A stretch of 7,229 nt of DNA from a virus (lineage: Duplodnaviria; Heunggongvirae; Uroviricota; Caudoviricetes), in IMG/VR virus record IMGVR_UViG_2675903368_000012; one strand, given 5' to 3'. The notes under the pieces were generated by a model, which searched no databases, was not told the origin of the DNA, and saw only the letters and a program-made list of their open reading frames with translations. Below are positions 1 to 5,823 of this stretch, one piece after another. The translations under genes were made by a program, and so were the position numbers. Each line of letters begins with the position of its first letter. Positions within the stretch are counted from its first letter, which is position 1.

Positions 1-2112
<2,112 letters not shown>

Positions 2113-2964: not shown

Positions 2965-2987
2965 ACAAAAAAACCGCTGGCGCGGTT
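2965..2987 (-). terminator. Rho-independent terminator for minus-strand transcripts leaving the 99 aa gene
   Basis: Read on the minus strand: stem AACCGC / GCGGTT (6 bp, 4 GC pairs) with loop GCCA, followed directly by a run of 7 T. On the plus strand the same hairpin is followed by GTGCG with no T-run, so it is unidirectional. Confidence 0.55.
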
Positions 2988-3109
2988 GTGCGCTTGTGTA
3001 GTCAGCAGGCTGCGAAACCCGGCACCCGTTTTGTGAGGTGCAGCGGAAATGTAACCTGACTGATTGCGGCATGGCAAGCGGTTTTTTTGTGTGTGCATGT
3101 TCTGGTTTC

Positions 3110-3409: not shown

Positions 3410-3651
3410 GCTCTGGCTTCCTTCAGTAGCTGGTTAAACGTGTTGGTAAGTGGATTGCCGCACCCGAACGGCATCGGGTTTATCTGGTAAGAAAAGCGAC
3501 CGCCTGTTTTGCGCTCTTTTCTTATGACTGAACCGCTGCGCCAGAGTCGGCGTAACTCCGCATTAATGGCTGTGGTTGGAGTATTCAGTGCTGCGGCGAT
3601 TTCTCCACCGCTACACCCCGGATTGGCGGCGATATAGTCCAGAATGGTCAT
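3406..3651 (-). CDS. Small winged-helix regulator, PapI/FaeA-like, 81 aa
   Basis: N-terminal pattern ILDYIAANPGCSGGEIAAALN...LRRLWRSGSVIRKE matches the PapI/FaeA signature as I recall it (IL..L....G....EIA.AL......L..L...G.V.R). ATGA overlaps with both neighbouring genes. Confidence 0.7.
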   Translation of the reverse strand: MTILDYIAANPGCSGGEIAAALNTPTTAINAELRRLWRSGSVIRKERKTGGRFSYQINPMPFGCGNPLTNTFNQLLKEARA

Positions 3652-3851
3652 CTGCGTGACTCCTGTACCTGTCGGATAAGGTTCACCCGCACCACATTCG
3701 TGGCGCAGAAGTAAGTGCCGTCAGTGAGATAGATGTGATGTGCATCCTTTTCTGAACGGTGTTTGTCGATTGTGGTAATCAGGCGTTCGTCGACTTCGTA
3801 TTCACGCCCTCTGGAGGTAAAACGAACGACAGGAAAATGCTTAATTGCCAT
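3648..3851 (-). CDS. Hypothetical protein, 67 aa
   Basis: Strong SD (AAGGAGG) 5 nt upstream of the ATG at 3851. Stop overlaps the start of the next gene (ATGA). No family recognised. Confidence 0.7.
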   Translation of the reverse strand: MAIKHFPVVRFTSRGREYEVDERLITTIDKHRSEKDAHHIYLTDGTYFCATNVVRVNLIRQVQESRR

Positions 3852-3937
3852 TACGCCTCCTTGGCGTGTGCGAATACCTCCGCGAATGCGGATTGTTTTT
3901 ACATTTTCTTATTTAATCTGTGGTTTTATTTGCTCTG

Positions 3938-4051
3938 TTATTCGCCAGTGAAAAAGCGTTCAATCTTTTTTATTGAATGAATAATTCGCATAATCCCAAT
4001 AGCGCAGGCCACCGAAATAATCAGAACAAGCCATGAGATAAATATACTCAT
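3938..4051 (-). CDS. Small hydrophobic peptide, 37 aa (MSIFISWLVLIISVACAIGIMRIIHSIKKIERFFTGE), not in the ORF track
   Basis: ATG at 4051-4049 overlaps the TGA stop of the 80 aa gene (ATGA). About 20 hydrophobic residues followed by a basic tail, i.e. a single-pass membrane peptide. TAA stop at 3938-3940. Confidence 0.4.
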   Translation of the reverse strand: MSIFISWLVLIISVACAIGIMRIIHSIKKIERFFTGE

Positions 4052-4290
4052 GCGATATTCCCCAGCTCATACGGTTCAATATGTTCCCCGCATTCTGCGG
4101 CACAGATCAGCTCGGAAAGTTCGTTAAGTGCATCCAGATCATCAGCGTAAAAAGCCACGTCATACAGACTTCGGATTGCTCTGGTCAATGAGTCACGGGC
4201 CGCACGTTCAGCATGAGCGCCTGATACACTTAAGCGAAAATAAAAGCGCTCAAGTGCTTTGTTAATGAGAGTTTTATATTCTTTGCCCAT
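4048..4290 (-). CDS. Hypothetical protein, 80 aa
   Basis: ORF with an AGGG SD-like element 7 nt upstream, starting 11 nt after the stop of the 94 aa gene. No family recognised. Confidence 0.65.
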   Translation of the reverse strand: MGKEYKTLINKALERFYFRLSVSGAHAERAARDSLTRAIRSLYDVAFYADDLDALNELSELICAAECGEHIEPYELGNIA

Positions 4291-4301
4291 CGCAACGCCC
4301 T

Positions 4302-4589
4302 TTAATCTGCTTTCTGAATTTCAGTTTCTGAATCCATACAGATAATTTCGATATAGGGTTTATCGCCATTAACCTGACGAGCCTTTTCAGCTTCGCTAAT
4401 GATTTCGCGTACGGTCTGGTACGGAAGTTCCACGATCAGTCGCGTGCCGTTCAGATAAACGTAAGTGGCTTCGGCGGCTCCGTTTTTCCCCGCCGGAGCC
4501 ACTCCATCAATAGCGGATGCGCGTAATAACAGTTCACCGCGAAAATCAATAAAGCGGATAAATACACCTTGAGTATGGTCTTTAGTCAT
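4302..4589 (-). CDS. Hypothetical protein, 95 aa (internal ATG of the 115 aa track ORF chosen as start)
   Basis: ATG at 4589 is preceded by AGGTG at 7 nt spacing and lies 10 nt after the TAA stop of the 113 aa gene. The longer 4649 start would overlap that gene by 50 nt. Confidence 0.65.
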   Translation of the reverse strand: MTKDHTQGVFIRFIDFRGELLLRASAIDGVAPAGKNGAAEATYVYLNGTRLIVELPYQTVREIISEAEKARQVNGDKPYIEIICMDSETEIQKAD

Positions 4590-5193: not shown

Positions 5194-5400
5194 TCACCCG
5201 ATAAACCAGATAACAAACGCTATCAACATCGCCCCAATAGCTGCCGGGAAAAGTCCTTTGGTATAAGCGGCGATATATTCAATGCTGAGTTCAATAAAGC
5301 GTTCTTTATGTCCCGTTAACTTGCGAAACAAATAGATCTCTATTACGCCTATCTCAATAAAAACAAGGGTCAGAATGGCGCTGATGATATGGCTGGTCAT
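5194..5400 (-). CDS. Small membrane protein, 68 aa, two predicted transmembrane helices
   Basis: ORF directly downstream of cox (cox stop at 5407-5409). Two hydrophobic stretches (ISAILTLVFIEIGVIEIYLF and LFPAAIGAMLIAFVIWFIG). SD is weak. Confidence 0.55.
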   Translation of the reverse strand: MTSHIISAILTLVFIEIGVIEIYLFRKLTGHKERFIELSIEYIAAYTKGLFPAAIGAMLIAFVIWFIG

Positions 5401-5694: not shown

Positions 5695-5823
5695 TGTGGT
5701 AATCTCCCTAATTCGTTCGAATGGCTCAAAATGGCTTATATCGGCTTATTTGAGTGTTTTTATGTTTGTGCCCGATGTGGCATGTTGTGATGGAGGATAT
5801 GCCCGATATGGCATCTTTGTCAA
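5695..5823. promoter_or_regulatory. Repressor/cox divergent switch region with candidate early promoter Pe and operator repeats
   Basis: Direct repeats TGCCCGAT(G/A)TGGCAT at 5769-5783 and 5800-5814. On the minus strand, a perfect TTGACA (5823-5818), an 18 nt spacer and TATCCT (5799-5794). Three 10 bp-phased GGCT units at 5723-5726, 5733-5736 and 5743-5746. Confidence 0.5.

Follow-up and report, generated by a model that had tools for sequence, protein, structure and literature searches.

Very small membrane proteins with a single hydrophobic helix are known from several bacterial and phage systems. The type I toxins of Escherichia coli, such as Hok, TisB, IbsC, ShoB, LdrD, ZorO, and DinQ, are about 20 to 50 aa long and combine one hydrophobic helix with a charged end. 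Among the holins and single-gene lysis peptides, P2 Y and the 37-aa Lys of phage M are examples of small transmembrane peptides encoded by phages. More generally, small phage membrane peptides have time and again proved to target host membrane machines specifically, whether to inhibit or to modulate them. Small, non-essential, host-directed genes are also found in the early operon of phage 186, where fil encodes an inhibitor of cell division and dhr an inhibitor of host replication. A further group, comprising AcrZ, MgtS, MgrB, CydX, and KdpF, consists of proteins of fewer than 50 aa with a single transmembrane helix, which are thought to bind larger membrane proteins (PMC12648545).

Here we examine a locus that resembles each of these in some respect. 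It lies in a window of 7,229 nt (the whole stretch of viral DNA that was analyzed, to which all positions refer), which is the immunity and early region of a P88-type prophage (genus Xuanwuvirus, P2 family). An initial annotation, made from the letters of the window, had singled out a short minus-strand ORF as a hydrophobic peptide, likened it to type I toxins, and raised the matter of an antisense RNA across it. We find that the observation is correct: the ORF is a genuine gene that is conserved among relatives and already listed in the databases, and it is an ordinary representative of a known type. The toxin and antisense interpretation is not supported. The coordinates of the features that enter the argument are collected in Table 1.

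Table 1. Features of the peptide gene and its surroundings in the window
Feature	Positions	Strand	Basis
37-aa small membrane peptide gene, stop codon included	3938..4051	-	P88 gp07 / WP_000021652 family
Codons 2-21, predicted transmembrane helix SIFISWLVLIISVACAIGIM	3989..4048	-	Kyte-Doolittle, AlphaFold2
Codons 22-37, basic amphipathic tail RIIHSIKKIERFFTGE, predicted cytoplasmic	3941..3988	-	net charge, hydrophobic moment
ATGA stop/start overlap of DUF4754 and the peptide gene	4048..4051	-	sequence read; GCATGA conserved
Shine-Dalgarno-like element GGGGA, inside the last DUF4754 codons	4055..4068	-	anti-SD duplex energy
DUF4754, upstream partner gene, 80 aa, predicted small helical bundle	4048..4290	-	Pfam PF15946, AlphaFold2
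Conserved 5-bp mRNA hairpin UCCGC-N4-GCGGA	3879..3892	-	covariation
Candidate early promoter TTGACA-18-TATCCT	5794..5823	-	consensus match only, 10/12

The plus strand of the window carries the integrase (from 6210) and a repressor-like HTH gene. On the minus strand, the genes follow each other in the order cox (Pfam Phage_Cox), a 68-aa two-helix membrane ORF, DUF4761, a 95-aa gene, DUF4754, the 37-aa ORF, a 67-aa gene, a MarR-like winged-helix gene, an Ead/Ea22-like gene, the isrK/C4 RNA region, a 76-aa “derepression” gene, a DUF5405-like gene, and the gpA replication endonuclease. The candidate early promoter is situated about 100 nt upstream of cox, between cox and the divergent repressor-like gene, and from its position the operon, and hence the peptide gene, is probably transcribed from it. 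No convincing sense-strand terminator was found ahead of the ORF. The peptide gene lies inside the early operon, with one promoter-like site of chance-level quality upstream of it (4265-4237, within DUF4754). Its neighbors are early-operon genes, and no late lysis cassette (endolysin or spanin) is found next to it.

Three other elements of this region deserve mention in their own right. The 68-aa ORF with two hydrophobic helices (5194-5400, minus strand; phrog_14475), directly 3' of cox, is present in strain 503025, phage Chuche, and loci L177 and L178 and is absent from P88 and the O157:H7 prophage; it behaves like an accessory (moron-like) gene. Strong Rfam matches to the C4 antisense RNA (RF01695, 83 bits) and isrK (RF01394, 64 bits), at 2844-2931 and 2967-3041 on the minus strand, are seen just upstream of the gene for the 76-aa “derepression protein” (2557-2787), and the arrangement resembles a c4/ant-like RNA immunity module of the P1/P7 type, here carried by a P2-family prophage. 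The gpA ORF (1-2112, minus strand) reaches a stop after 703 codons at positions 1-3 of the window, and its intact homologs are about 940 aa long. The prophage of strain 503025 is 99.5% identical elsewhere but cannot be aligned over positions 1-73; its own gpA is marked in RefSeq as a pseudogene with an internal stop. The prophage in the window may be replication defective.

The ORF starts with ATG and encodes the 37-aa product MSIFISWLVLIISVACAIGIMRIIHSIKKIERFFTGE; both its extent and its product, as first reported, are borne out by the ORF list. Its G+C content is 35%, against 51% for the window. The Kyte-Doolittle profile reaches its maximum of 2.68 (19-residue window) over residues 3-21, which form the sole strong transmembrane segment of the peptide, and the tail that follows (residues 22-37) combines a net charge of +2 with a high hydrophobic moment. 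AlphaFold2 models residues 2-34 as one helix with a mean pLDDT of 92. The original description of one hydrophobic helix followed by a basic tail thus agrees with the transmembrane prediction by hydropathy, by charge, and by structural modeling. In having a single transmembrane helix within fewer than 50 aa, the peptide has the size and helix content by which small membrane regulators are recognized, and it is equally a small hydrophobic membrane peptide of the sort found in type I toxin-antitoxin systems. Across lineages, M1 is invariant, as are S6, W7, L10, G19, and I20 in the helix and I24, I30, E31, and F34 in the tail. A test for a conserved helical face gave no significance (p = 0.06-0.2).

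Comparisons across relatives speak clearly for a coding function. Of 169 related regions drawn from viral contigs, genomes, and phages, 168 preserve both the frame and the ATGA overlap, the single exception being phage 503458, whose DUF4754 gene also carries a frameshift. Both are likewise intact in all eight divergent loci and in all 45 loci retrieved by a profile search; one of the 45 starts with GTG. The divergent lineages, recovered with a degenerate DNA pattern and a DUF4754 profile, encode a 41-aa version (…IESLFTG[DE]KRRK) that is always located directly 3' of an 80-85-aa DUF4754-like gene; KRRK is added at its end, and the tail charge of this type is about +4. Among 96 unique sequences from close relatives (Nei-Gojobori), the peptide frame shows a pS of 0.187, a pN of 0.044, and a dN/dS of 0.21, against dN/dS values of 1.1-1.4 in four control frames of the same sequences; the antisense frame that shares the third codon positions has a value of 0.32, and DUF4754 itself has 0.10 in the close-relative comparison. 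In deep comparisons, the peptide frame retains a dN/dS of 0.09-0.31 (pS 0.50-0.74, pN 0.16-0.27), against 0.8-4.5 in shifted frames. The initial annotation had named loss of the frame in related prophages as the outcome that would speak against the ORF; the frame is found to be conserved, which clearly favors a real gene. On this comparative evidence, ORF 3938-4051 is almost certainly a genuine protein-coding gene.

The statement that the ORF was unannotated held only for the gene track available to that first reading, because RefSeq, the P88 record, and UniRef all list the protein. In all of the genomes inspected, RefSeq enters the 114-nt ORF as a “hypothetical protein” (WP_000021652, WP_000021655, and WP_000021656), the record of phage P88 names the same protein gp07, a “membrane protein” (YP_009113050), and the UniRef names include “Prophage membrane protein,” with several exact sequences each present on about 1000 contigs. 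The peptide is 100% identical to a protein of Xuanwuvirus P884B11 and 97% identical to P88 gp07. It displays the full-length pattern of the P88 gp07-like family of 37 or 41 aa (M-[SN]-x-[FL]-x-SW...G-I...I-E-x-x-F) and occupies the position typical of that family, after DUF4754 with a 4-nt overlap in a P2-family early operon. When 1.84 billion representative proteins were searched exhaustively with HMMER, only eight clusters were recovered, all of the P88 gp07-like family. Searches of Pfam, PHROGs, NCBIfam, PADLOC, and the PDB sequences gave no match for the peptide, and no relatedness to any characterized protein was found.

The source genera named for the family are Escherichia, Shigella, and Salmonella, and a Citrobacter rodentium phage also carries it; judged by these searches, the family is tiny and confined to Escherichia and its close relatives. 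Within this range it is common: of 5426 complete E. coli genomes, 1366, or about a quarter, contain the 801-nt stretch surrounding the ORF. A scan of genome contigs returned only two loci. One copy of the DUF4754-peptide module, 95% identical and located on a 226-kb contig (locus L004, NZ_JBQPOM010000071.1), is labeled as belonging to the Gram-positive Vagococcus sp. WN89Y; this most likely represents contamination or mislabeling by Enterobacteriaceae DNA. The last four to seven residues of the peptide are replaced or lost in about 8% of alleles: about 6.5% have a frameshifted tail that gives a length of 45 aa, and about 1% encode just 30 aa. The allele of the isolated phage Chuche is itself only 30 aa long. 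These altered and truncated tails, including that of phage Chuche, indicate that phages can remain viable without the gene, or at the least without its tail. We found no papers in the literature on “DUF4754” or on the peptide sequence. A Ribo-seq study of EHEC is uninformative for the peptide, since its screen was limited to intergenic ORFs of at least 50 aa in uninduced cultures.

The relationship of the peptide gene with its upstream partner is constant in arrangement. The partner matches PF15946 with 176.7 bits, against a Pfam gathering threshold of 27, and its AlphaFold2 model (pLDDT 90) consists of two long helices. Foldseek searches with this model against the PDB and BFVD retrieved only generic helical bundles (best E-value 0.58), a profile search against PDB sequences retrieved only designed helical repeats, and a search with a divergent DUF4754 query gave five near-identical matches. 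The ATG of the peptide gene (4051-4049) overlaps the TGA of DUF4754 (4050-4048). The initial annotation had pointed to this ATGA overlap with the 80-aa early gene, and it is not only present here but is kept across lineages: GCATGA is found in every one of them, with GCGTGA as the single variant. A Shine-Dalgarno-like element is likewise present in every lineage, 6-10 nt 5' of the peptide start. Its predicted duplex with the anti-Shine-Dalgarno sequence has an energy of -5.5 kcal/mol here and ranges from -4.2 to -10.3 kcal/mol over eight lineages; internal windows average -1.5. The residues of DUF4754 that this element encodes vary by lineage (LGNIA, IQEEA, IEELA, IERAA, and TEVAA). Overlaps of 4 nt occur at three junctions of the early operon, and coupling is therefore a feature of the operon as a whole.

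The two coupled genes differ in their history. In divergent comparisons, the peptides share 57-68% identity, against 32-40% for the DUF4754 proteins, and at loci L175 and L176 identical peptides follow DUF4754 proteins whose mutual identity is only about 40%. The 41-aa type of peptide is paired with a P88-type DUF4754 at loci L172 and L176. The finding of identical peptides behind divergent DUF4754 proteins suggests that recombinational spread may explain part of the conservation. On the other side of the peptide gene, the gene that follows the spacer is variable: it is a 67-aa gene (MAIKHF...) here, a 136-138-aa gene (MNAKEEG...) in O157:H7 and many others, and a 105-aa or 92-aa gene elsewhere. 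A mosaic recombination junction is seen right after the peptide gene, at 3852-3937 of the window and at the equivalent positions in relatives. The L175/L176 pairing and the variable gene after the spacer together point to recombination junctions on both sides of the peptide gene.

The reading that we prefer combines these features into one scheme, and as a whole, including its mode of action, we give it about an even chance of being correct. The peptide gene would be transcribed together with cox, DUF4761, and DUF4754 from the repressor-controlled early promoter, and the peptide would be translated from its own Shine-Dalgarno-like element as well as through coupling to the termination of DUF4754. 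As the operon should be repressed in the lysogen, the peptide would be made only after infection or induction. The product would be a 37-aa single-pass inner-membrane peptide, for which the positive-inside rule predicts a periplasmic N-terminus and a cytoplasmic basic amphipathic tail. It may act as a small membrane-embedded modulator that binds either a conserved membrane component of the host or itself, helix to helix. In such a role it would be part of an accessory early host-directed program and not a free-standing toxin with an antisense antidote.

Within this scheme, a specific helix-to-helix contact between the peptide and a conserved membrane component seems to us more likely than generic damage to the membrane, at a confidence that approaches or just reaches an even balance. 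The invariant polar and small residues of the helix (S6, W7, and G19) suggest a specific interaction over generic hydrophobicity, and this constraint, along with a divergence slower than that of the neighboring genes, is the basis for the choice. A more explicit form of the same idea makes the peptide a host-takeover effector, in which the S6-W7...G19-I20 helix and the I30-E31..F34 tail would bind an inner-membrane machine of E. coli. The target, possibly an essential one, would be inhibited or re-tasked early in lytic growth and could belong to division, envelope synthesis, transport, or respiration. In this explicit form the proposal is possible but unlikely to be right; if true, it would explain why the peptide diverges about half as fast as its neighbors, and it would provide a new natural 37-aa inhibitor with a defined host target.

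Alternatively, the peptide could damage membranes as such, with oligomers in the inner membrane depolarizing or permeabilizing it, in the capacity of an early host-shutoff, host-killing, or superinfection-exclusion factor. The combination of a short hydrophobic helix with a basic tail is shared with many membrane-active peptides, the early-operon location would suit such a factor, and the conserved small residues S/A13, A17, and G19 could mediate self-association. Yet replication and late expression still depend on host energy, so that early depolarization would be detrimental to the phage itself. Moreover, the gene is coupled 1:1 to a soluble partner, the long operon that carries it shows no antidote, lysis and endolysin genes are absent from the vicinity, and there is no match to any PADLOC or PHROG family. 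On balance, we consider this an improbable explanation.

The constancy of the gene pair raises a different option, namely, that the peptide is an anchor for DUF4754, with which it would form a stoichiometric complex whose cytoplasmic peptide tail tethers DUF4754 to the inner membrane. The pair with its ATGA overlap is conserved in every lineage examined, down to 32% identity in DUF4754, the two genes always occurred together in the loci fetched, and coupling would favor equimolar synthesis. However, the swapped pairings described above, with the same peptide beside DUF4754 proteins of about 40% identity (L175/L176) and the 41-aa type beside the P88-type DUF4754 (L172 and L176), weaken this option because they indicate that the peptide and DUF4754 do not co-diverge, and 4-nt overlaps are common in the operon whatever the function of the genes involved. 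An anchoring role seems doubtful to us.

The spacer that follows the peptide gene also contains a conserved element, which bears on whether the product or merely its translation matters. Within this 86-nt spacer, about 45 nt 3' of the peptide stop, is a short mRNA hairpin that is preceded by an A/C-rich, G-poor tract and followed by GG. Across the alignment, 97.9% of its cells are paired, against 36-63% in slid registers, and its covariation score was reached by none of 500 shuffles. Two of the five pairs change on both sides (C-G to U-A), the loop varies, and the G·U variants pair in the operon-sense RNA only. The fold z-score of the spacer is -3.0. Since the operon strand has no T-run here, the hairpin does not qualify as a classical terminator; it could serve in RNA processing or stability, bind a protein, or belong to a Rho-dependent site. 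We also considered it as an equivalent of the tR1 terminator of phage 186 or of the P2 terminators and rejected this, for the sequences are unrelated and those terminators bear T-runs. In the minimum-free-energy fold, the stop-codon region pairs with sequence just 3' of the hairpin; as a conserved structure, this outer stem was discarded, being broken without compensation in many alleles.

Together with the A/C-rich tract, the fairly fixed distance between the stop codon and the covarying hairpin and the pairing of the stop-codon region in that fold would fit a leader-like ORF, in which the act of translation and not its product counts and termination modulates the hairpin or spacer and hence the distal early genes. 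Such an arrangement is very improbable here: the amino acid sequence is under strong purifying selection, which a pure leader ORF does not need, the outer stem involving the stop-codon region shows the uncompensated breaks just described, and the 45-aa and 30-aa alleles move the stop codon and still retain the hairpin.

Similarly slight is the chance that the locus is like a type I toxin-antitoxin system, with the peptide as a toxin held in check by an antisense RNA that starts on the plus strand near CATAAT (3989-3994). The small hydrophobic peptide is of the expected kind. The hexamer noted in the initial annotation is indeed present on the plus strand, and a lenient scan finds antisense-strand matches of 8-9/12 in several lineages. 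Nevertheless, the antisense RNA that it had suggested lacks promoter, terminator, and Rfam support. A standard scan detects no plus-strand promoter in 3600-4400, no plus-strand terminator was found downstream of the putative antisense start, and no Rfam family matches at the locus. The -10-like hexamers are not independent evidence, because they arise when Ile/Met/Lys codons are read in reverse complement (CATAAT from ATT ATG and AATAAT from ATT ATT); an antisense promoter over the ORF was accordingly set aside as unsupported, the lenient matches being by-products of codon usage. Synonymous sites are also nearly saturated in the deep comparisons. On the sense strand, the gene has neither a promoter of its own nor a structured leader and overlaps the preceding gene by 4 nt; a search for an independent toxin transcription unit found none, with the Shine-Dalgarno-like element placed within DUF4754 and the nearby promoter-like site at chance level. 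Without its own promoter or leader, a plus-strand promoter or terminator, or an Rfam match, the defining organization of a type I system is missing, and the proposed likeness to type I toxins gives way to a gene inside a polycistronic early operon. Finally, the notion of a spurious ORF in a non-coding stretch, conserved for DNA- or RNA-level reasons or diverged too recently to decay, could appeal to the very short length, the near-identity of the majority of copies, and the want of a matching protein family, but is effectively refuted by the comparative data, in which 50-74% of synonymous sites have changed and yet the frame, start codon, Shine-Dalgarno-like element, and hydrophobic pattern are kept, with dN/dS well below 1 in the peptide frame only.

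The interest of the gene lies in its being among the best conserved of the P88-like early operon and in its presence in about a quarter of complete E. coli genomes. With 37 aa, clear invariant residues, and natural truncated alleles that can serve as controls, the peptide is a cheap and well-defined candidate for study as a modulator of the host membrane.

When set against the systems introduced at the outset, the peptide resembles the type I toxins in size, in its single hydrophobic helix, and in its charged end; this likeness is one of architecture only, as the peptide has no sequence relation to them, no promoter or leader of its own, and no detected antisense RNA and is instead coupled within a phage early operon. 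The holins and lysis peptides are likewise small and phage encoded, but the peptide gene belongs to the early operon, and any endolysin or lysis cassette is distant from it; a role in lysis timing is incompatible with early expression, and by this early-operon context the peptide is not a holin. With AcrZ, MgtS, MgrB, CydX, and KdpF, the peptide shares its helix and size, and by analogy a comparable mode of binding may be proposed for it. It has no homology to these small inner-membrane regulators and, in contrast to their chromosomal and stress-regulated genes, is phage encoded and belongs to early lytic growth. Phage 186 offers a parallel in gene order: its early operon, also of the P2 family, has fil and dhr in the same promoter-proximal place with a structured spacer right behind them, and its annotation includes translational coupling, as we propose for the peptide gene. 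However, Fil and Dhr are not homologous to the peptide and are not transmembrane (hydropathy maxima of 1.26 and 0.49), and the spacer of 186 contains the T-run terminator tR1, the sequence of which is unrelated to the hairpin at 3879-3892. No analogous small transmembrane ORF was found in the early operons of phages 186 and P2, where Fil, Dhr, and Orf78 are all not transmembrane. It is with P88 gp07 that the correspondence is complete: members of this family are the same protein at 86-100% identity, in the same place directly 3' of DUF4754 and with the same ATGA overlap. The product of the ORF shows no difference from the P88 gp07, RefSeq, and UniRef entries, and the ORF belongs to the P88 gp07 family.
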